This document shows positions 1-9,213 of a DNA stretch of 64,000 nt, piece after piece. The position numbers and the translations under genes were made by a program. Numbering within the stretch: position 1 is the stretch's first letter; the number at the start of each line of letters is the position of its first letter. Origin of the DNA: an uncultured Pseudorhodobacter sp. (lineage in GTDB: Bacteria > Pseudomonadota > Alphaproteobacteria > Rhodobacterales > Rhodobacteraceae); the NCBI GenBank assembly GCA_913062925.1, contig CAJXWJ010000008.1, forward strand, positions 3,907-67,906, written 5' to 3'. Below the pieces are notes generated by a model. It ran no database searches, was not told the DNA's origin, and saw nothing but the letters and a program-made list of their open reading frames with translations.

Positions 1-129
1 GCCGGCAAAGGCCACGAAAGCCACGCCCCAAGCCATAATATTAAAAACTATCAGAAAACTTATCATCAACACGACATTCCGCTTTAACTGCGGCGTCGCG
101 GAATCGAAGATCCGGTTCAGCATCGTCAT
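1..129 (-). CDS. N-terminal 43 codons of a probable HoxN/HupN/NixA (NiCoT) Ni/Co permease, running off the window edge
   Basis: Not in ORF track. Reverse strand from 129 reads MTMLNRIFDSATPQLKRNVVLMISFLIVFNIMAWGVAFVAFAG, resembling NiCoT TM1 (FN-x-x-AW-x-x-AF-x-AF). Lies directly downstream of a cobalamin riboswitch. Confidence 0.6.
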   Translation of the reverse strand, partial: MTMLNRIFDSATPQLKRNVVLMISFLIVFNIMAWGVAFVAFAG

Positions 130-187
130 CACTTTCTTCGCGGCACCGCCCGTGCGCGAAACAAGGCCCCAAAGGGCCGACCACAGG

Positions 188-385
188 GTGACGGGCAGGT
201 CTCCTGGCTCGCGGGTCATCCCACCTGCCCCACCTTCCCGGTTTCCCAGTGGCTTTGTGGACAGACAGTCGCCGCTTACAGTTGCGGGGGCAGCTGCGGA
301 TTGGGCCCCGATTGGGTCGTCCCTACCGCATTCCCTATTAATCCAGCAGGCTGCGCCTCGCATGGAACCAGTCAGGAACCTGTGT
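188..385 (-). promoter_or_regulatory. Cobalamin (AdoCbl) riboswitch
   Basis: Reverse strand has AATAGGGAATGCGG...AATCCGCAGCTGCCCCCGCAACTGTAAGCG...GCCACTGGGAAACCGGGAAGG...GAGCCAGGAGACCTGCC, the canonical B12-element motifs including the B12 box. Ends are approximate. Confidence 0.95.
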
Positions 386-474
386 AGCTTGCGGGGTTCG
401 GACTTGTCTAGCGGGGAAAGCGACCTGTTTGCGCGCGCCGCCGCCAAAACCGCGAGAGCGGCATTTGTGTCAAG

Positions 475-515
475 ATTGGTAACCAATTCGAAACAGAGCC
501 GCGTCAAGACTTGAC
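475..515. promoter_or_regulatory. Two perfect palindromes in a divergent promoter region (candidate operators)
   Basis: ATTGGT-A-ACCAAT at 475-487 and GTCAAG-A-CTTGAC at 503-515. Confidence 0.4.
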
Positions 516-583
516 CAAAGCAAGGCTTCACGCAAAAACCAAAGCGTAAACGGCCGCAATGCCGAATAGGATAGTTGAGACCC

Positions 584-2035
584 ATGCCAGTGACCGACCC
601 CAAGACCGCGCCACAGGGCGACGCGCCCGCGCAGGGCGTGTTGATCAGGGCCGAGAATGGCGATGTGGTTGGCTTTGACGAAACCGGCCTGACGCTGCGG
701 CTGTCAGATCGGGTGATTGCCGATTTGCGGCGACGTTTGGGCTTGCCTGTGACCGTCGAGCCGCAGGCAGCCCAGCTTTTGGGTGATATCGATGCTTGGG
801 GTCTGCGCCAGATTGGCGATTGGCTGCATTTCACCGCAAGGTTGGAACCCGACCGACCGCCGCGCGATTTTCGCAAACCGCTGGATGGCGGCGACATCAT
901 CGCCGATGCAATTGGCCCTTTGCAAGCGATCCTCAGCATCGGCGGCGCGCGACGTGCGGGCTTTAACAACGGCCCTCCCAGCTTTGCCTATCACATTCTG
1001 GCCCCTGCTGATGACATCTTTTCGGTCGGGCTTGAGGGCACGGATGAGGCGCATCCGGTCGCGGGTCTGCAACGCCTGCCCCATTGCAGCCGTGATGCGC
1101 TGACAGCCCAAGCCTTGTTGCAGATGCGCTATGAGGCGATGCAGGCGCTGCCCCTAATGCTGGTGCGGGCCGAGACGGATAATTCCGCCAGCCTCGAGGC
1201 TTTGATTGGCGGGCAGGCCTATGTGAACTTTCTCGCAGCGCTCGATTCGCTGAATTTGGCCGCCGCAAGCTTGGGCAAGCCCGCGCGGGTGCTGGCGGTG
1301 GCGATTGATCTGTCGCTGGAAGACCAGCTTGGCACGCCTGACAGCAAGCTTGTGGCGCTGCGGCGGCTGATGGCGCGGATCGAGGCCGATATGGCGGCGC
1401 GCGGCCTGCATCGGCCAACGTTTCTGCTGACAGCCGAGGCAGGCACCCAGCATCTAAGCCGACATCCAATGATCTTGGCGCATGCGGCTTTGGCTTGGGC
1501 GCATGGGCCGCACCGTGTGGCGCTGCCAGCACCGGGCTATATGTTTGAACAGACCCGCTTTGCCCGCCCCACCCCTGCTGCGCGCATCCGTATGGCCGAG
1601 ATGGACGCCTATGCGATTTCGGCCTTGGCGCGGCGGCAAGACTGGCGCTGCCCGCAGATCTTGCTGGCCGAGGTGATGGGGCGCGCGCTGCGCGTCACCT
1701 GCCGCGCGATGGGCAATCTGGTGCTGGACGATCGCTTGGGCGCGGGGCCGGCGGGCGGCTTTCGTATTGAAACCAGCGGCAAGCCCGTGGCGATTACCGC
1801 GCTGCGCATCGCCGAGGATGACCCGCAGGCGTTGATCCTGACGCTGGACCGCGCGCTGACGGGCAAGGCCGATCTGGCCTATGCTTACGGCGCGCCAACG
1901 CCTTCTAGCGATGCTTTTCCCGCCAATCGTGGCGGATTGCGCGACGGCTGGTTCGCCCCCAGTCGGGCCGAGGGCGGTACGTTGCATCGCTGGGCCCTGC
2001 CTGCGCTGATTCCTATTCATCAAGGGGTCTGGTGA
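584..2035 (+). CDS. Hypothetical protein; degenerate SGNH/sialate-O-acetylesterase-like domain plus C-terminal beta-sandwich (tail-spike-like architecture)
   Basis: ORF 575..2035, ATG at 584 after AGGATAG. C-terminal pattern (LVLDD...GF...I.L.L...LAYAYG...NRGGLRD...LHRWAL) recalls SASA-domain proteins, but GQSN, QGE and DxxH motifs are absent. Stop overlaps next ATG (TGATG). Confidence 0.55.
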   Translation: MPVTDPKTAPQGDAPAQGVLIRAENGDVVGFDETGLTLRLSDRVIADLRRRLGLPVTVEPQAAQLLGDIDAWGLRQIGDWLHFTARLEPDRPPRDFRKPLDGGDIIADAIGPLQAILSIGGARRAGFNNGPPSFAYHILAPADDIFSVGLEGTDEAHPVAGLQRLPHCSRDALTAQALLQMRYEAMQALPLMLVRAETDNSASLEALIGGQAYVNFLAALDSLNLAAASLGKPARVLAVAIDLSLEDQLGTPDSKLVALRRLMARIEADMAARGLHRPTFLLTAEAGTQHLSRHPMILAHAALAWAHGPHRVALPAPGYMFEQTRFARPTPAARIRMAEMDAYAISALARRQDWRCPQILLAEVMGRALRVTCRAMGNLVLDDRLGAGPAGGFRIETSGKPVAITALRIAEDDPQALILTLDRALTGKADLAYAYGAPTPSSDAFPANRGGLRDGWFAPSRAEGGTLHRWALPALIPIHQGVW

Positions 2036-2811
2036 TGGTGATCTTTTATCCGGGCGTGCTGCCCGCAGGCGTCTTGATTGACGCCGATTTCACCCCGCCC
2101 CCGGCGCCGGTGGTGATCGCGCCAAAACCACTTGGTCCGCCTGCCCCGATCTGGTTTTCTACCCGCGACGCCGACAGTCTAGAGTTTACCAGCGCCAGCC
2201 GGGTCACCGGCTGGGCCGCCTGCGCCCCCAGCACCGCGCGCGCGCGGCCCGTGGGCTTTAACAAGGACGGCACTGGCTGGGATGCAGCCAGCCAATCGCT
2301 TGATTTCGTAGAAAAAACCCATGGCGGGCTTTGTGTTGCGGATGCGATTTCTGATGGAAGCTGCTTTAGCCTTGGGCTGATCTACACCCCCCCGCCCAAG
2401 CGGGATGCGCAAACCCTGCTTAGTCTGCAAGCGCGCGAGGACGAGGGCTATGCGTTTCTCTCGGCGGAAAGCGGCTTTATCCGCTTTGGACTGAAGGGCG
2501 GCGAAGCCAGCCTGCATCTGCCAGACCCGCAGCGGCTGACGCTTTTGCTGTTGTCTTCGGATGGACAGCGGGTGCGGATGAGCGCGAACCGCGATCTTGC
2601 GATTTCGGTGGCTTGCGCCCTGCCCGCCGCGCCGCTGGATCTGTTCTTGGGCTGTCGGGGGGGCAGTCGCAGCCTGCTGGGCAAATTGGGCAGCTTTCAG
2701 GCCAGCGATCTGCTGATCTGGCCTGATCAAGACGTATTGGCGGGCGAGGTTGCCCGCGCGCCCGAAGCCGCCCTTTCGCTGTGGCAAGAAAGGCTTCGCA
2801 ATGGCAACTAA
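2035..2811 (+). CDS. Hypothetical protein, probable LamG/concanavalin-A-like jelly-roll domain after a Pro-rich N-terminus
   Basis: WFSTRDADSL...V.GW...L.F pattern and alternating beta-strand stretches. Translationally coupled on both sides. Confidence 0.5.
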   Translation: MVIFYPGVLPAGVLIDADFTPPPAPVVIAPKPLGPPAPIWFSTRDADSLEFTSASRVTGWAACAPSTARARPVGFNKDGTGWDAASQSLDFVEKTHGGLCVADAISDGSCFSLGLIYTPPPKRDAQTLLSLQAREDEGYAFLSAESGFIRFGLKGGEASLHLPDPQRLTLLLLSSDGQRVRMSANRDLAISVACALPAAPLDLFLGCRGGSRSLLGKLGSFQASDLLIWPDQDVLAGEVARAPEAALSLWQERLRNGN

Positions 2812-5119
2812 GACCAAATCTCGCGTCGCAGCCTTTGACCGCGCTGCGGCCGAGGCCAGCAATATCTGTGTGATCTGGATCGACGATATGATCGACATTT
2901 TCACATGGCGCGATGCTTTTGGCGTGACCATCCAAACCCCGAATATTGATCGGCTGATGGCCGAGGGCACGCGTTTTGCCAATGCCTATGCCACCATCCC
3001 GCTCTGCGCGCCCTGTCGGGCCGAGCTGACCACGGGCTTGTCGCCATTTCGCACCGGACTGGTAGATCTGAACCGGTTTTGGCGCGATGTGCTGCCCCCC
3101 ACGGCGGCTTGGCAGTTTGATCTGCGCCGCGCGGGCTTTCGCACCTTTACCACCGGCAAGACCGACGCAAATTATCGCCCGATGCCAGAAGAGTATCGCC
3201 GCGTGCTGTTTCATGAAGATGTCTTGGCCGAAGATGCGGGCCGTCGCGGGCCGCTGACCGAATATCTTGACCGCGGCCCCGGCATTGCGGGGGTGAATGG
3301 GCCAAATGACGATGGCTCGGCCGATGCGACCTTTTACGATTATAGCGTGGCGCAAAACGCCATCGACTATCTGGGTCGCGCCGATCCTGCGCGGCGGCAT
3401 CTGATCCAGCTTGGCTTTAAGCATCCACATTACAATCTGGTTTGCCCGGATCGGTTTTATCAGATGTATGATGCAGCCGCGATCACCTGGCCTGCCAGCG
3501 CGCATCCCGATGATTTTACCGGGCCGCAACCCGGCATGGCGGTTTACGAGCTGGCCTATATCGTCAACGGCGCCTGGACGCCTGAAAAGGCCGGCGATGA
3601 AGGCTGGCGGCAGGTGGTGCGCGGCTATTTTGCGGCCTGTAGCCATGTTGACCACGAAATCGGCCGCTTTATGCAGGCCTTGCGGGCGTCAAAACTGGGC
3701 GATTGCACGACGGTGGTGCTGCTCTCGGACAATGGCTTTAACCTTGGCACCCACGACAGCTTTCACAAAATGAGCCAATGGGACAGCGCGGCCCATGTGC
3801 CCTTGGGGATCTGGCACGCCGGCATGACCCCGCAAGTGATTGATCTACCAGTGTCTTTGCACAATCTGCCCAAGACTATTCTGGATCTGGCAGGCCTGCC
3901 AGCGCGGCCCGAGTGGACTTCGGGGCAATCGCTTTTGCCGCTGATCAACGCGGATTTCGGCAGCTTTGACCGCAGCAAATCGCCGCTGACGGCGGTGTTT
4001 GGCACGCTGTCGGTGCGCCCTTCCACCGAAGGGCTGACGCAATATCGCTATTTCCGCTATCCGAACGGCGAAGAGCATATTTATGATGTCGTCGCCGATA
4101 AGGGCGAGACGACCAATCTGATCGGCTGCGCTGACACCCAAGCCCTGCGCGACGAGCTGGTCGCGGCGGGTGCCCATATCGGCCTTGATCTGCGCGGGCT
4201 TGAACGGCCTGACAGCGGTATCTCGGCGATGATGGCGATGGACGGGATGGTGGTGTTGCAGGGCGGTTTTGCCGACACCCAAGTCTGGGCTTACGGTCAT
4301 GCCGCCGAAGCCGTGCGCGTGACCGAAGCCACCTATGACACGCTGTTTTATCTGGCAGGCCCTGATGGCTATAGCCTGAAAGTGCCGGCAGGCATCAATG
4401 TGGTAAAAATGGCCACCGTGGTTGCGCGCAATGAAACCGAAAGCGAGATCGGCAAGGCGGTGCGGATTGTGGCGCATCCTGACAGCGCGATTGAATTTGA
4501 AGCCTCGGAACGGGTTTCGGTGCATGTCACCGGCAGCCGTGGCGATGATGTTATGGTTGGCCCTGTCTATGCAGGAGCAGTGTTTGAAGGCGGTGCGGGC
4601 AATGATCTTTTGGTCGCGGCCTCGATGCGGCGCAATGACGATCATGCGTTTTATGGCGGGGCGGGCAATGACACCCTGCGCGGCGGAAATGGCCGCGACA
4701 CGCTGGACGGCGGGCCGGGGGATGATCAGATCTACGGCGGCGACGGCTTTAACACCATCTATGGCGGGCCGGGGAATGATAAGATTTTCGACGGCGACCA
4801 CAGCTCGACCATCCACACCGGACCGGGGCGCAACGAGGTCACTTCGGGCGCTGGGGCGGATCAGTTCTTTGTCGGGCCAGGCGAAAATCGCATCACCGGC
4901 GGCGAAGGCGGGGTAACCTATCATGTTGCTTGGGGCGGCGTCTTGACGATCACCGACCTGCGCGACGGCGATACGATTTCGCTGGCAAGCTGGCCGATCG
5001 CACCCAGCTACCATCAAGAGAGCGACCGCATCATCATCTCGGGCGGGCTCAGTTTCATCGAGGTGCTGAACATCTGCGATATCGCGGCGGTGCAGGCCAT
5101 GGTGATCGGACGCAGTTAG
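2801..5119 (+). CDS. Cys-type (formylglycine) sulfatase fused to C-terminal RTX/hemolysin-type Ca-binding repeats
   Basis: IWIDDM, TPNIDRL, CAPCRAELTTG (CxPxR), FKHPH, SDNG and HKMS motifs. Tandem nonapeptides GGAGNDLLV, GGAGNDTLR, GGNGRDTLD, GGPGDDQIY, GGDGFNTIY, GGPGNDKIF from about 4589. ATG at 2801 overlaps the upstream gene end. Confidence 0.9.
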   Translation: MATKTKSRVAAFDRAAAEASNICVIWIDDMIDIFTWRDAFGVTIQTPNIDRLMAEGTRFANAYATIPLCAPCRAELTTGLSPFRTGLVDLNRFWRDVLPPTAAWQFDLRRAGFRTFTTGKTDANYRPMPEEYRRVLFHEDVLAEDAGRRGPLTEYLDRGPGIAGVNGPNDDGSADATFYDYSVAQNAIDYLGRADPARRHLIQLGFKHPHYNLVCPDRFYQMYDAAAITWPASAHPDDFTGPQPGMAVYELAYIVNGAWTPEKAGDEGWRQVVRGYFAACSHVDHEIGRFMQALRASKLGDCTTVVLLSDNGFNLGTHDSFHKMSQWDSAAHVPLGIWHAGMTPQVIDLPVSLHNLPKTILDLAGLPARPEWTSGQSLLPLINADFGSFDRSKSPLTAVFGTLSVRPSTEGLTQYRYFRYPNGEEHIYDVVADKGETTNLIGCADTQALRDELVAAGAHIGLDLRGLERPDSGISAMMAMDGMVVLQGGFADTQVWAYGHAAEAVRVTEATYDTLFYLAGPDGYSLKVPAGINVVKMATVVARNETESEIGKAVRIVAHPDSAIEFEASERVSVHVTGSRGDDVMVGPVYAGAVFEGGAGNDLLVAASMRRNDDHAFYGGAGNDTLRGGNGRDTLDGGPGDDQIYGGDGFNTIYGGPGNDKIFDGDHSSTIHTGPGRNEVTSGAGADQFFVGPGENRITGGEGGVTYHVAWGGVLTITDLRDGDTISLASWPIAPSYHQESDRIIISGGLSFIEVLNICDIAAVQAMVIGRS

Positions 5120-5273
5120 CCTTGCCGCAAAATTGCCCCATTGTTGCCATTCAGGCGACAATGACCAAGGGCACTTTGGCGCGCAGCCCAAAGCCTTTTG
5201 TGATCGTGTTGTAAGTGGAAATGCAGTGCCCCTGACCCAAAGCCCGTTGCAGACAAAATGGACCAACCTGCCG

Positions 5274-6398
5274 ATGTCGCAAGATCTTGCGGGCTTGCAA
5301 GAGGTGTTGCTGGTGCCTTGGGGGCAAAATGAGGTCAAGGGTGCCAAACGCGCTGCGGGGCTTTTTGATGCACAGGGGCAGTTTTTGCCCAGCGGCGACT
5401 GCCTGCGCTGGGCCAATGCGCCGGTGACGGTCGAACCCGAGATTGACCCAAGCGCCCCGCTTACCCGGCTGGAGGGGCGCTATCTTTATGGCGGCATGCT
5501 TTACGGCCATTTCGGACATTTTTTGTGTGAAAGCACGGCACGGCTTTGGGCATTGGCGCGCGATCAGTGCTTTGACGGCGTGGTCTGGTTGCCCAAGGTG
5601 CGACTGGGCCATGCAGCAAAGCTGGTCAAACCCTATCACAGCTTTTTTGCCGCCCTGGGCTTTGAGCGCATTGGCCTGTTTGCGCCACAAACCAATACGG
5701 TGATTGAAAGCCTGGTTATCCCCGAACAGGGGTTTGGCATCGGCGATCTGTCCTCGGGGCGGCCCGAATATCGCGATTTCATGCGCAAGCATCTGGGGGC
5801 CAACCTTGCGGCAGAAGGGGCGGAAAAGCTCTATATCTCGCGCGCGCGCCTGCCGGGAAAGCGCGGCTCGGTGCTGCTGGAACACCTGATAGAGGCGCGG
5901 CTGGAGGCCGAGGGCTATACGGTTTTTCATCCGCAAGATCATAGCCTTGCCGAGCAAATTGCCCAGTATAAGGCCGCGCGCCAGATTGTGGCGCTGGATG
6001 GCTCGGCGCTGCATCTGGCGGCGATGGTGATGCATCCCGCCTGCAAAGTTGCCATCATCAACCGCGGCCCTTCGCAGAATATCGACGACTATCTGCGCCA
6101 GTTCGAAGCCTTTACCGGGGCGGTGCCGACGCGGATTGATGCGGTGAAATCCTATTGGTTTTACGAAGGCCGCCGGGTGGTGAAACGCGAAACCCACGCG
6201 CTGCTGGATTTTCCGGCGCTGGGGCGCGCGCTTGCCGCTGCAGGCTTTCGCTCCGCCACCGCCTGGCGCGCGCCAACCGCAGCCCAGATCGCCGCCGAAG
6301 TGGCCCTGCGCGAGGCCCGCGCCGAAATGCGCCTGACCCGATACGAGGTGTCAGACCAAGCCGAAGAGGCCGAAGCAGACCTGGGGGCAGACCGATGA
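5274..6398 (+). CDS. Glycosyltransferase family 61 (DUF563)-like capsular polysaccharide protein
   Basis: GHFGHFLCES.ARLW, LYISR, HPQ..SL.EQI..Y..A..IVALDGSALH motifs. Start set at ATG 5274. Confidence 0.8.
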   Translation: MSQDLAGLQEVLLVPWGQNEVKGAKRAAGLFDAQGQFLPSGDCLRWANAPVTVEPEIDPSAPLTRLEGRYLYGGMLYGHFGHFLCESTARLWALARDQCFDGVVWLPKVRLGHAAKLVKPYHSFFAALGFERIGLFAPQTNTVIESLVIPEQGFGIGDLSSGRPEYRDFMRKHLGANLAAEGAEKLYISRARLPGKRGSVLLEHLIEARLEAEGYTVFHPQDHSLAEQIAQYKAARQIVALDGSALHLAAMVMHPACKVAIINRGPSQNIDDYLRQFEAFTGAVPTRIDAVKSYWFYEGRRVVKRETHALLDFPALGRALAAAGFRSATAWRAPTAAQIAAEVALREARAEMRLTRYEVSDQAEEAEADLGADR

Positions 6399-7315
6399 AA
6401 AAAGGCGACCTCAGCTTTGTCTTCGTGATCGAAGGGCCAAGGCTGCAAACCCAAAGCCTGCTGCTGGCCGACAGCCTGCGCCGCCATCATCCTTTGGCCG
6501 AGATTATCGCCTATTGTCCGGCAGGCTGTGATTTCCCGCCGGAAATTGCCGCGGTATTACAAGCCTGCGCCGTGTCCTGCCGCCCGCTTGCGGTGCCGCA
6601 GGGGCTTTGGGCGGCGCCCTATCCGCACGGCAATAAGATCCTTGCGCTGGCCCAGCCGCGCGAGACGCGGTTTTCGATGTTTCTAGACACCGATATGGCA
6701 GCGATTGCGCCGATCGACCCCGATGATTTGCCCGGCGCGATGCAGGTCTCGGTGGTGCCCGAAGGCATTGCAAGCTGGGGCAAGGATCTGGCCCGCTGGG
6801 AAGTGGCGCATAGGTTTTTCGATCTGCCGATGCCAAGCGAGCGGATTCACTTACTGCGCGGCCGCAAGCGCGCGTTTTTGCCCTATTTCAACGCCGGCAT
6901 GGTGGCGATCCGCGAGGAAGACCGCGTGCAAGGTTTAGGCTTTGGCGCTTTGTGGCGCAACACCGCCAGCGCCTTTGATTTTGGCGCAAAGGTCGGCGGC
7001 AAGCGGCCGTGGCTGGATCAGATCACCCTGCCGCTCACCATGCGCCGCTTTGGTTTTGCCCATAAAATCGTGGACGAGCGTAACAATTGTTCGATCTCGA
7101 ATGACCGCAGGCTTGATGGGTTGAACCCTGCAATTTTGCACTATCACCGCTCGGGATTTTTGCGCAATTGGCCCGACTATGGCGATCTGATCAGCGCCAT
7201 GCTTGACCGGCTGCCGCAACATCGCGCCGCCCTGACCAATTGGCTGACCCAAGGCGGCTATTTGGGCGATCCGCAGCCAGAACCTGATGCGGCAGAGGGC
7301 GAAGACCATGGCTGA
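6395..7315 (+). CDS. GT-A fold glycosyltransferase (GT8-like)
   Basis: FLDTD (DxD), YFNAGMV, LDQ and ILHYH motifs. ATGA overlap with the upstream stop at 6395-6398. Confidence 0.75.
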   Translation: MKKGDLSFVFVIEGPRLQTQSLLLADSLRRHHPLAEIIAYCPAGCDFPPEIAAVLQACAVSCRPLAVPQGLWAAPYPHGNKILALAQPRETRFSMFLDTDMAAIAPIDPDDLPGAMQVSVVPEGIASWGKDLARWEVAHRFFDLPMPSERIHLLRGRKRAFLPYFNAGMVAIREEDRVQGLGFGALWRNTASAFDFGAKVGGKRPWLDQITLPLTMRRFGFAHKIVDERNNCSISNDRRLDGLNPAILHYHRSGFLRNWPDYGDLISAMLDRLPQHRAALTNWLTQGGYLGDPQPEPDAAEGEDHG

Positions 7316-7351
7316 CACAAGCGTGCACATGCGTGCCAAGGCTGGGCTCTG

Positions 7352-8230
7352 ATGGGCTTTATTGTCGCGGCGATTGTCAACGAACCAAGCGCGGTGCTAG
7401 AGCGATTTGTCAGCTGGTATTTGCGCCAAGGCGCGGATCGGGTGGCGCTGTATTTCGACGACCCTGCGCATCCCGATATAGCCCGCTTTGCCGCTCTGCC
7501 CTGCGTCACCGTTACACCCTGCACGGCAGAGTTTTGGGCCAGCCTTGGGCTATCGGCCGAGGTCCGCTTTACGCTGCGGCAAAATGCTGCGCTGACCCAT
7601 GCCTATCGCGCCCAGACCGAGGGCTGGCTGTTGAATGTCGATGCCGACGAGCTGATGTATGCAGCGGGCAAAACTTTGGCGGCGTGGTTGGCCACGCAGA
7701 CCGAGCCGCAGAGCCTCCGCATCGCCAGCGCCGAACAGATCCACACCGCAGGCCCCCAGCAGCTGTTTCGCCTGCAAATCGCCAAGGCCGAGGTCAATGA
7801 GATTTATGGCGCCGAGTCCGATCTTTTTCGTCGCCGCTATGGCTTGATCGGTCATGCCGATGGCAAGTCTTTTCACCGCGCGGGGCGCAGCGATCTGCGG
7901 CTGCGCCAGCATTGGGCCGAGGATGCCAGCGGCGCCGAAGTGATCGGCACAAGGCTCTTTGCCCGCGATGGGGTGCATCTGTTGCACTATATGGCGCCCA
8001 ATTACGCCGCATGGCGGAACAAGCTGGATTGGCGGTTAAACGCGCATGGCTTCCCCGCCCCGATCAAAGAACGTCTGCGCGCCTGTCAGGCCAGTGCCGA
8101 CCCAGAGGCAGGCTTTCGTGCCCTGTTTGATCTGTTACACGCCCCCGACCCCAAGCAGATTGCGGCGCTTGAAGCCATTGGCGGGATTTTGCGCCTGCCT
8201 GCGGATTTTGGAGCCCCGCAGACAGGCTAA
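7352..8230 (+). CDS. Glycosyltransferase family 2-like (Glyco_tranf_2_4)
   Basis: IVNEP, LYFDDP, RQNA, WLLNVDADE, GKSF and LLHY motifs. Confidence 0.8.
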   Translation: MGFIVAAIVNEPSAVLERFVSWYLRQGADRVALYFDDPAHPDIARFAALPCVTVTPCTAEFWASLGLSAEVRFTLRQNAALTHAYRAQTEGWLLNVDADELMYAAGKTLAAWLATQTEPQSLRIASAEQIHTAGPQQLFRLQIAKAEVNEIYGAESDLFRRRYGLIGHADGKSFHRAGRSDLRLRQHWAEDASGAEVIGTRLFARDGVHLLHYMAPNYAAWRNKLDWRLNAHGFPAPIKERLRACQASADPEAGFRALFDLLHAPDPKQIAALEAIGGILRLPADFGAPQTG

Positions 8231-8239
8231 ATCGGCCAT

Positions 8240-8308
8240 GTTACACCGTTACAGTCGCAGCCTGTTACGGCGTTACACCCCGAAACGCTATCGCGTTACA
8301 GCGTTACA
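8240..8308. repeat. Three tandem GTTAC(A/G)-N2-GTTACA units
   Basis: GTTACR hexamers start at 8240, 8248, 8264, 8272, 8295 and 8303, at a convergent gene junction. Confidence 0.7.
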
Positions 8309-9213
8309 GCTGTCAGCAGTGGCTGGCCGGAAAAATGTGCGGCAAGGTTGTCGCGCTGCAATTGCCCCATCGCGCGACGGGTGGCCTCGGTGGCTGAACC
8401 TTGGTGCGGTTGCAGCAAGACATTGGCCAGCGGCTTGAACCGCGGGTTGATGGCGGGTTCGCCCTCAAACACATCCAGCGCAGCCCCTGCGATCTGATTG
8501 GTCTCGAGCGCAGTCAGCAAGGCGTCTTCGTCGATATTGGCCGCACGCGAGATATTGATCAGCATGCCATTCGGCCCGAGGGCGCGCAGCACCTCGGCGT
8601 TGACGATATGGCGGGTTTCGGCATTGGCCAGCGTGACCACAAACAGAAAATCCACATGCGCGGCCAAAGCCACGGGATCGGGGATATAGGTATAGGCAAC
8701 CGGCTTTTCGCTGCGCGCAGAATAGGCGATCTGCATGTCAAAGCCTTCCAGACGGCGCGCGATTTCGCTGCCAATCCGGCCCAGCCCCAAAATCCCCGCC
8801 TTGGCGCCGAAAAAGCGGCGTTGCAGCGGGAAATTCGCCGCCTCCCAAGCCCCCGAGCGGGCATGGGCATCGGCAGCAGGCACCGCACGGCTGAGGCCAA
8901 GCGCCATTGCCAGCGCCAGATCGGCGCAATCGCCGTCCAGCACCCCGGGGGTATTGGTGACACTGACACCACGCGCCTTGCACAGGCCAAGATTGATTGC
9001 ATCATAGCCCACGCCATTCACCGCAATCAGCTCGAGCTTGGGGCAGGCCTGAATAATCGCATCGGAAACGCCTGCGCCGCCGGTGGTGGCAATGGCGCGG
9101 ATCTCGCTGAGGTCTGGCGCAGCGCTCAGGTGATGCACATGGTAGGCCGCGTCGAGCGGGGTTTGATCCCATTCGGCATAGGGGCTGATTTGCAAGATAT
9201 CCGGTTTGGTCAT
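8296..9213 (-). CDS. D-isomer-specific 2-hydroxyacid dehydrogenase (GhrB/2-ketoaldonate reductase-like)
   Basis: GVGYDAI, GILGLGRIG, LINISRA, LDVFEGEP and PHQGSAT motifs. Confidence 0.9.
   Translation of the reverse strand: MTKPDILQISPYAEWDQTPLDAAYHVHHLSAAPDLSEIRAIATTGGAGVSDAIIQACPKLELIAVNGVGYDAINLGLCKARGVSVTNTPGVLDGDCADLALAMALGLSRAVPAADAHARSGAWEAANFPLQRRFFGAKAGILGLGRIGSEIARRLEGFDMQIAYSARSEKPVAYTYIPDPVALAAHVDFLFVVTLANAETRHIVNAEVLRALGPNGMLINISRAANIDEDALLTALETNQIAGAALDVFEGEPAINPRFKPLANVLLQPHQGSATEATRRAMGQLQRDNLAAHFSGQPLLTAVTL

Follow-up and report, generated by a model that had tools for sequence, protein, structure and literature searches.

In a stretch of 64,000 nucleotides from an uncultured Pseudorhodobacter sp. 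(contig CAJXWJ010000008.1 of assembly GCA_913062925.1; hereafter the window), the gene at 2801-5119 encodes a protein of 772 residues, P0001, in which a sulfatase domain is fused to C-terminal RTX repeats. Its clade within the Rhodobacterales keeps the signature of formylglycine-type sulfatases and has lost both a catalytic histidine (His A) and the linkage to the formylglycine-generating enzyme (FGE). The overlapping reading frames place the gene third in a translationally coupled three-gene module, and the two partner proteins encoded upstream resemble parts of phage tails. Our leading reading, which we put forward tentatively, is an FGE-independent extracellular module that would desulfate or edit a surface glycan, with the RTX sulfatase as the catalytic part and the two tail-fibre-like proteins as the targeting parts.

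A sulfatase domain with an altered active site

The sulfatase-RTX gene is preceded by the Shine-Dalgarno-like sequence AGAAAGG 5′ of the ATG at 2801, and homologues share this start position. Its parts are as follows:

2801-5119, + strand: sulfatase-RTX gene, an intact open reading frame (ORF) of 772 codons
2858-4165, + strand: catalytic domain of S1 sulfatase fold, residues 20-455, delimited by PF00884 and the BetC alignment
3005-3019, + strand: signature C69-A-P-C72-R73, formylglycine-type, with Cys at +3 instead of the usual Ser or Ala, giving CxxC
3155-3166, + strand: G119-K120-T-D122, with Lys A retained and His A replaced by Asp
4166-4525, + strand: linker of about 120 residues (456-575) between the PF00884 and PF00353 regions
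4526-4930, + strand: RTX nonapeptide repeats, residues 576-710, with five strict and about five degenerate GGxGxDxUx units
4931-5119, + strand: C-terminal tail, the last 62 residues and the stop codon, with the '...ITDLRDGDTISLASWP...' block followed by a variable tail

The Pfam family Sulfatase (PF00884), which has an alkaline-phosphatase-type fold, matches residues 38-365 with an E value of 2.2e-32. Residues 20-441 align with the choline sulfatase BetC (PDB 6FNY, E 5e-30), the best solved relative, and the closest solved structures are S1 sulfatases throughout. Two orthologue assignments were rejected on score: choline sulfatase (TIGR03417) at 145 bits against a curated cut-off of 433, and arylsulfatase at 148 bits against a curated cut-off of 481. 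Weak matches to PehA and Phosphodiest were obtained as well. Public names for the family go only as far as 'sulfatase-like hydrolase/transferase' or 'arylsulfatase A-like enzyme'.

Relatives of P0001 with more than 62% identity were found in 248 species by a scan with one genome per species. The best 80 of these 248 hits are all from Rhodobacterales, and the closest, at 87% identity, comes from a Pseudorhodobacter metagenome-assembled genome (MAG). The clade of P0001 consists of proteins of about 765 residues with one architecture and 62-89% identity across genera. Carriers make up 9 of 151 genera in the family sample (one genome per genus) and about 35 of 401 genomes in the order-level sample. 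For the analysis of gene neighbourhoods we used the 83 clade loci that carry flanking sequence, and neighbours were counted within 10 kb. A sister clade of sulfatase-RTX proteins with 26-32% identity to P0001 occurs in the same order (e.g. loci L113-L128) and served for comparison with 15 loci. The two clades have in common the sulfatase domain, the repeats and a conserved block at the C-terminus.

Most of the catalytic site is that of an S1 sulfatase. The metal ligands D28, D29, D310 and N311 are invariant in the clade, as is the full signature C69-A-P-C-R-A-E-L-T-T-G with its downstream TG. The His-B motif F-K-H208-P-H210 and the Lys B residue K323 align with their counterparts in BetC, and H210 and K323 are invariant. 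The CAPCR, DD/SDN and FKHPH elements on which the original prediction of a secreted formylglycine sulfatase was built were thus recovered residue by residue in the alignment with 6FNY. That prediction had also pointed to GKTD in place of the usual GK-x-H, and here the alignment puts D122 at the position of BetC His104, followed by Ala, Gly, Ser or Thr in 83/83 clade loci. The altered active site is real and clade-wide: GK[TV]D was found in 83/83 clade loci and GKxxH in 15/15 sister-clade loci, while CAPCR in 83/83 clade loci stands against CxPSR in 15/15 sister-clade loci. Every catalytic-site column, together with Asp122 and Cys72, is invariant across genera.

The lost residue is important in BetC. 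It has been proposed that His A acts as the base in the elimination of sulfate from the formylglycine diol (PMC5066984), and the H104A exchange in the choline sulfatase of S. meliloti lowers kcat/KM about 1800-fold (PMC5870055). One further histidine, His138, is invariant and specific to this clade; judged from the alignment, it might substitute for His A.

The N-terminus of P0001 was read for export signals and contains no hydrophobic stretch and no twin-arginine motif. The first beta-strand with the metal-binding Asp residues begins at residue 21, and homologues have about ten residues before it. A core that starts this early leaves no space for a Sec or Tat signal, in agreement with the original prediction, which had noted the lack of one. 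At the other end, HemolysinCabind (PF00353) matches four stretches of the protein (E 1.9e-16). Five strict GGxGxD units were obtained by motif count and about five degenerate ones were read by eye between residues 578 and 708; their Gly and Asp columns are invariant across genera. The linker is likewise conserved across genera and holds degenerate Gly/Asp-rich turns, from which we infer a beta-rich structure. With about ten nonapeptides and a linker of about 120 residues, the C-terminal layout agrees with the earlier description of RTX repeats behind a linker of about 100 residues. The ITDLRDGDTISLASWP block is kept even in distant sulfatase-RTX proteins, and the extreme C-terminus varies; this variable tail could be an uncleaved secretion signal.

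Partner proteins and relatives in a prophage

The two genes upstream of the sulfatase-RTX gene are:

585-2035, + strand: unk486, first partner gene, with ATG at 585; its longest ORF starts from TTG 575
2032-2811, + strand: unk259, second partner gene, encoding a LamG/ConA-like lectin fold

The stop of unk486 overlaps the start of unk259 by 4 nucleotides, and the end of unk259 overlaps the start of the sulfatase gene by 11 nucleotides. The pairing is kept across the clade. unk486 lies upstream of the sulfatase gene in 82/83 loci, the sole exception being a locus at a contig end, and unk259 was detected in 66/83 loci, mostly between unk486 and the sulfatase gene. By profile search, orthologues of unk486 occur in exactly the 9/151 genera that carry the sulfatase. 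The original prediction missed this coupled, co-occurring, tailspike-like pair as well as the glycosyltransferase island described below. The partners diverge faster than the enzyme, with 35-76% identity compared to 62-89%. In the sister clade an unk486-like gene also adjoins in 15/15 loci, and glycosyltransferase and methyltransferase genes are often nearby; there, however, the partner is longer (736-917 residues) and no separate LamG gene was detected.

Neither partner has a Pfam or NCBIfam match, nor did a sequence search of the PDB return anything significant for them; only fold comparison and PHROGs were informative. In the AlphaFold2 model of unk486 (pLDDT 93.7), a small beta domain at the N-terminus is followed by a domain of SGNH/SASA fold and, at the C-terminus, an Ig-like domain. 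The model's top Foldseek match is the 630-residue chain of the tailspike of cyanopodophage Pan3 (9vyh_m, E 1.8e-19, TM 0.62), followed by the CE20 acetylesterase XAC1771 (7kmm) and the sialate O-acetylesterase SIAE (8f9o). In an alignment of 73 sequences no Ser or His column of unk486 is conserved, and the nucleophile site reads GGARR. Because no Ser or His is conserved among these homologues, unk486 is probably a protein of esterase fold in which the esterase chemistry has been lost. The model of unk259 (pLDDT 91.6) matches LNS domains of neurexin and agrin (E ~1e-6), and it also matches the second, 269-residue chain of the same Pan3 tailspike entry (9vyh_p, E 2.7e-6, TM 0.53).

The extreme C-terminus of unk486, ...LHRWALPAxLP... 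(window ~1985-2032), is the most conserved stretch of this fast-evolving protein, with R472, A474 and P476 invariant. This stretch may serve to dock unk486 to a partner.

A link to phages was also found at the sequence level. unk486 itself weakly matches PHROG 4201, annotated as tail fibre (E 1.5e-4), and a distant homologue of unk486 does so at 7e-12. One sister-clade copy lies in a prophage of genome G296, whose genes encode, in order, a tape-measure protein, a distal tail protein, a J-like tail fibre (PHROG 5616, E 2e-68), a fibre of 917 residues, the sulfatase-RTX protein and an endolysin. The 917-residue fibre carries an unk486-like C-terminus: its last ~260 residues match window 1229-2011, within unk486, with 32% identity (E 2e-15), and more than 40 clade loci are among the further matches listed for this C-terminus. 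Since relatives of the pair stand in a prophage tail-fibre cassette, a second exit route comes into view, namely release by lysis on a particle, which would need no type I secretion system (T1SS).

The chromosome of G296 has two such pairs of fibre and sulfatase-RTX genes (loci L127 and L128; C1:1281498-1283579 and C1:1630619-1632706), the two fibres being 90% identical. At least one of the pairs is inside a prophage, where the genes for the J-like tail fibre and the endolysin flank it. A further match, to PHROG 19870 (E 3.5e-35), a phage family without known function, was obtained with the sulfatase domain.

These relatives raise the possibility that the trio serve to bind and modify a receptor within a phage-like particle, be it a gene transfer agent (GTA) or a domesticated tail-fibre set, and are released by lysis, and that the RTX region is a calcium-stabilised structural domain and not a T1SS signal. 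We consider this rather unlikely, although several results fit it well. The two partners are similar to chains of a single phage tailspike complex, both lack any export signal, and they evolve faster than the enzyme, as receptor-binding proteins do; the PHROG 4201 matches of unk486 and its relatives and the position of the G296 pair point the same way. In addition, the spike and fibre genes belonging to the Rhodobacter capsulatus GTA (RcGTA) provide a precedent (PMC5026251). The search for the remaining parts of a particle gave a different picture. No phage or prophage structural module, that is, no tail or lysis gene hit, was found in this genome or around the 83 clade loci; the J-like fibre, distal tail protein and endolysin are absent within 10 kb of the loci and from the genome, and the other genes of the G296 prophage have no relative in either place. 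The long shaft that the prophage fibre has at its N-terminus is also missing from unk486. No phage record of INPHARED, that of Pan3 included, matched unk486, and none contains a member of this sulfatase clade; the sulfatase domain found only distant matches there, at no more than ~28% identity over most of its length and none in a cyanophage. IMG/VR likewise gave no hit. No CtrA box (TTAA-N7-TTAA), a sign of GTA-type regulation, was found near the module. Finally, the module occurs in only ~6-9% of genera, and GTA clusters are far more widespread in the Rhodobacterales than that.

Maturation, export and glycan context

No match to FGE (PF03781) and none to the anaerobic sulfatase-maturating enzyme (anSME, TIGR03942) was found anywhere in this 99.9%-complete genome. 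The proposal that P0001 is matured by one of these two enzymes therefore did not survive for its own genome, and it fares little better among other carriers. In a first sample none of nine carriers had an FGE hit better than E = 1e-5, against 79/151 genomes overall at E < 1e-10. A larger sample of 50 further carriers contained 19 with some FGE-domain hit, seven of them canonical and one of these seven a pseudogene. The statement that carriers never have FGE was rejected after this result and weakened to one that most lack FGE and that FGE is unlinked. Pooled, canonical FGE was present in 7/59 carriers and 38/142 non-carriers (Fisher p = 0.025), counts that are not phylogenetically independent, include many MAGs among the carriers and use a family, PF03781, that also hits non-FGE proteins. 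About 88% of carrier genomes are without canonical FGE; stated cautiously, FGE is missing from most carriers. A canonical FGE lies within 10 kb of 2/83 clade loci compared to 6/15 sister-clade loci (p = 1.1e-4), and stand-alone relatives of the sister clade, e.g. those of G131 and G090, also adjoin FGE. Loss of His A, gain of CxxC and loss of the FGE linkage thus go together in the clade.

The only other sulfatase of the genome is a Cys-type BetC (TIGR03417, 853 bits) with CAPAR and GKMH, encoded at C31:30213-31721 (locus L099:5213-6721) next to a betA-like choline dehydrogenase. As this genome has neither FGE nor anSME, the organism either matures Cys-type sulfatases by some other route or runs them unmodified. 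Both options have precedents: a choline sulfatase with unmodified Cys still turns over, an unmodified-Cys phosphonate monoester hydrolase also retains turnover (both PMC6189696), and E. coli has a third, unidentified maturation system (PMC6189696, its reference 28). By analogy, Cys69 could be converted by such a third system, and the BetC of this genome would need one too.

A more radical option is that no formylglycine chemistry takes place. Cys69 would then be the nucleophile, possibly redox-gated by Cys72, with Asp122 as general base; the substrate might be a phosphate, phosphonate or other anionic ester, or the domain might only bind a ligand. This option cuts across both the leading reading and the phage-particle explanation, and we judge it unlikely. 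It would account for the invariant exchanges of His A to Asp and of Ser(+3) to Cys, which coincide with the loss of FGE linkage, and for the lack of FGE and anSME in the genome. The turnover retained by the unmodified-Cys choline sulfatase and phosphonate monoester hydrolase and the weak PehA and Phosphodiest matches fit as well. However, the full CxPxRxxxxTG, which is a maturase-recognition signature, is strictly kept, and nothing has changed at the metal ligands, Lys A, His B or Lys B. The canonical Cys-type BetC in the same FGE-less genome argues for a maturase of another kind, and the invariant His138 might stand in for His A.

Export was the other part of the original prediction, which placed P0001 among the substrates of a T1SS. 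The genome has three such systems, all on other contigs than the sulfatase-RTX gene:

contig C30: PrtD-type ABC transporter (TIGR01842, 625 bits) with an adjoining HlyD
contig C27: TolC-like protein, LssB-type ABC transporter and HlyD
contig C6:17768-31650 (locus L096): adhesin-type T1SS with OEP, a 781-residue LssB-like ABC transporter and HlyD

The PrtD-type ABC transporter is above the curated cut-off in all eight other sampled carriers. Unlinked RTX glycanases are exported by PrsDE in Rhizobium, and by the same token export of P0001 through the unlinked PrtD-type system is plausible. The T1SS substrate claim is therefore backed by the protein architecture and by the T1SS genes of the genome, while export itself is a plausible part of it. 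The remark that the window holds no FGE or T1SS gene was accurate, as the HlyD-type hits are all on other contigs and FGE is missing genome-wide. The original prediction had named a genome without FGE or anSME and without T1SS, coupled with a lack of formylglycine or activity, as speaking against it; here the maturation enzymes are absent and, with three systems, T1SS is present.

About nine RTX ORFs were counted in the genome. At C28:1-28683 a reading frame that is truncated at the contig end stays open for at least 9561 codons. It has 23 strict GGxGxD motifs, and an HlyD-like gene follows at ~C28:29918-30433; the arrangement resembles that of a giant RTX adhesin accompanied by secretion genes of its own. 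The C6 locus also encodes a BapA-like protein of 1040 residues with Big_6/Big_13 domains and directly adjoins the flagellar genes motB and flgE-flgK-flgL-flgI.

Downstream of the sulfatase-RTX gene, three further genes on the same strand continue the block:

5274-6398, + strand: GT61-family glycosyltransferase (PF04577, E 4e-14); start uncertain, longest ORF from 5133
6395-7315, + strand: GT8-like protein that has a DxD motif and matches no Pfam family; likely ATG at 6395, overlapping the GT61 stop
7352-8230, + strand: GT2_4 glycosyltransferase (PF13704, E 1.8e-10), the last gene of the same-strand block

The block at 585-8230 thus consists of the trio and the GT61, GT8-like and GT2_4 genes, and a clear membrane segment is absent from all six proteins. 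The next gene (8296-9213) is on the opposite strand and converges on the GT2_4 gene. Homologues of the GT61 and GT8-like genes lie within 10 kb in 30/83 and 41/83 loci, respectively. Other recurrent neighbours are a GT2_4/GT92-methyltransferase fusion (59/83 loci), a DxD glycosyltransferase (57/83), an alpha/beta-hydrolase-like protein (30/83), GT90 (18/83) and GSCFA (12/83). The recurrent genes around the core accordingly encode soluble glycosyltransferases, methyltransferases and esterase-like proteins. Among the recurrent neighbour clusters with an assignable family there was no polysaccharide exporter, priming transferase, glycoside hydrolase, transporter or regulator.

Sulfotransfer_3 genes are present in all nine sampled carriers, outside the module. 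The sole Sulfotransfer_3 domain of this genome (E 7.5e-43) is at C14:15391-15933 in an ORF of 606 residues, and proteins of 680-760 residues resembling this ORF occur in most other carriers. The C14 protein might make the sulfated substrate.

Taken together, the reading that we place first runs as follows. P0001 would leave the cell unfolded through the unlinked PrtD-type T1SS, and its beta-roll would fold with external calcium. The two lectin-like partners would target it to a polysaccharide on the cell surface or on a neighbouring cell, which is probably the product of the adjacent glycosyltransferases. There it would remove, or otherwise act on, an anionic ester, most likely sulfate. Catalysis would be independent of FGE, by means either of a further Cys-maturing system or of an unmodified Cys69 with Asp122 replacing the lost histidine.

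Several results weigh against this reading and keep it tentative. Of the Lys A/His A pair by which S1 sulfatases are recognised, only K120 is present and His A is replaced; moreover, the residue that P0001 misses is important for BetC catalysis. The canonical BetC in an FGE-less genome means that lack of FGE alone does not prove independence from formylglycine, and the limits of the FGE genome counts given above apply here as well. As judged by recurrent neighbour clusters, none of the 83 loci has a T1SS gene linked to the module. unk486 and unk259 have neither RTX repeats nor a signal peptide, which leaves their exit alongside the enzyme unexplained, and the prophage homologues of the module are presumably released by lysis and not by a T1SS. 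Finally, no sulfotransferase was found among the recurrent neighbours with an assignable family, and because of this a sulfate ester as the substrate is suggested by the fold only.

A combined and more speculative scenario is also worth stating, although we think it improbable. The clade would have turned a formylglycine sulfatase into an FGE-independent enzyme (Cys69/Cys72 and Asp122) that is now the catalytic subunit of a domesticated tail-fibre complex, made up of the SGNH pseudo-esterase and the LamG lectin, and that is exported or released to strip or rewrite anionic groups on the receptor glycan of a phage or GTA. By far the least probable is the scenario of the original prediction, an ordinary secreted sulfatase matured by FGE or anSME that scavenges sulfate or sugars from environmental sulfated polymers: the sulfatase fold, the RTX tail and the T1SS of the genome fit it, but FGE and anSME are missing, the assignable recurrent neighbours are biosynthetic (glycosyltransferases and methyltransferases), the coupling to tail-fibre-like proteins is strict and the active site is derived.

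Formylglycine and a conserved catalytic His define the S1 sulfatases, and a clade found in 248 species has kept the signature and lost the His and the FGE link. With this clade it becomes testable how Cys-type sulfatases are matured, or function, without FGE, a question that dates back to the 'third system' of E. coli; the plasticity of the active site becomes testable as well. The pairing with tail-fibre-like proteins and the prophage copy point to sulfate or another anionic glycan decoration as a determinant of phage or GTA recognition in the Rhodobacterales.

A flagellar link was considered as well, based on a weak SWM_repeat hit of unk486 and on the flagellar neighbours of the module in Salinihabitans, and was rejected as flagellar genes are adjacent in only 2/83 loci. 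In Salinihabitans flavidus (FODS01000001.1, locus L013, 4735-19418) the order is GT90, two unknown genes, unk486, unk259, sulfatase-RTX and GT61, and the module is directly upstream of motB-flgE-flgK-flgL-flgI. This neighbourhood is probably a coincidence. A promoter and terminator scan of window 1-8500 gave nothing above chance. The region upstream of the module (window 440-575) is AT-richer, has no CtrA box and contains the perfect palindrome ATTGGT-A-ACCAAT at ~477-489, which may be an operator for the glycan block. Between the sulfatase-RTX and GT61 genes, 55 nucleotides past the sulfatase stop, a weak terminator-like hairpin is found at 5174-5193 (6 pairs, 3 of them GC, with a T-rich tail); such hairpin sites are fewer in the scanned region than expected by chance.

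Comparison with known systems

The nearest known enzymes are the S1 sulfatases, in particular S. meliloti BetC (6FNY, SulfAtlas S1_12). P0001 shares with them the fold, the CxPxRxxxxTG signature, the Asp/Asp/Asp/Asn ligands, Lys A, His B and Lys B. It differs in the exchange of His A for Asp, the Cys at +3, the C-terminal RTX domain and the obligatory partner genes, and also in its genomic setting, with no FGE in the genome and FGE linkage at 2/83 loci of the clade.

In its overall architecture P0001 is like RTX-tailed polysaccharide enzymes that are exported by T1SS, such as the Azotobacter AlgE mannuronan C5-epimerases, the Rhizobium leguminosarum glycanases PlyA and PlyB (exported by PrsDE) and Sinorhizobium ExsH. 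These have an N-terminal carbohydrate-active domain, a C-terminal beta-roll and no signal peptide; their secretion genes are unlinked and they are associated with exopolysaccharide genes. P0001 differs from them in that its catalytic domain is a sulfatase and its secretion is predicted. We know of no tail-fibre-like partners for AlgE, PlyA/PlyB or ExsH. In the literature we found no characterisation of any sulfatase-RTX protein; a 2010 review of RTX proteins devotes a single line to a predicted RTX protein that 'might act as a sulfatase' (PMC3034196). We likewise found no report that a sulfatase edits receptors, whether on the host side or in association with a phage tail.

The partner genes recall those of RcGTA, whose head-spike and tail-fibre genes (rcc01079/rcc01080 and rcc00171) lie outside the main cluster beside capsule and exopolysaccharide genes and have prophage homologues (PMC5026251). 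Compared by features and not by sequence, both are phage-derived, fast-evolving receptor-binding genes without export signals that stand beside surface-polysaccharide genes, are patchy in the Rhodobacterales and have homologues in prophages. In contrast to the module, the RcGTA loci are without a sulfatase, and no CtrA box is present at the module here. The likeness to the Pan3 tailspike (PDB 9VYH), with unk486 corresponding to the 630-residue chain and unk259 to the 269-residue chain, is at the level of the fold only, the sequence identity being only 14%. The kinds of part involved, an S1 sulfatase fold, an RTX tail and tail-fibre-like partners, are known. The following appear to be undescribed: that His A and the FGE linkage have been lost across the clade, that the signature has become CxxC, and that the pairing with tailspike-like proteins, which is shared with prophage tails, is obligatory.

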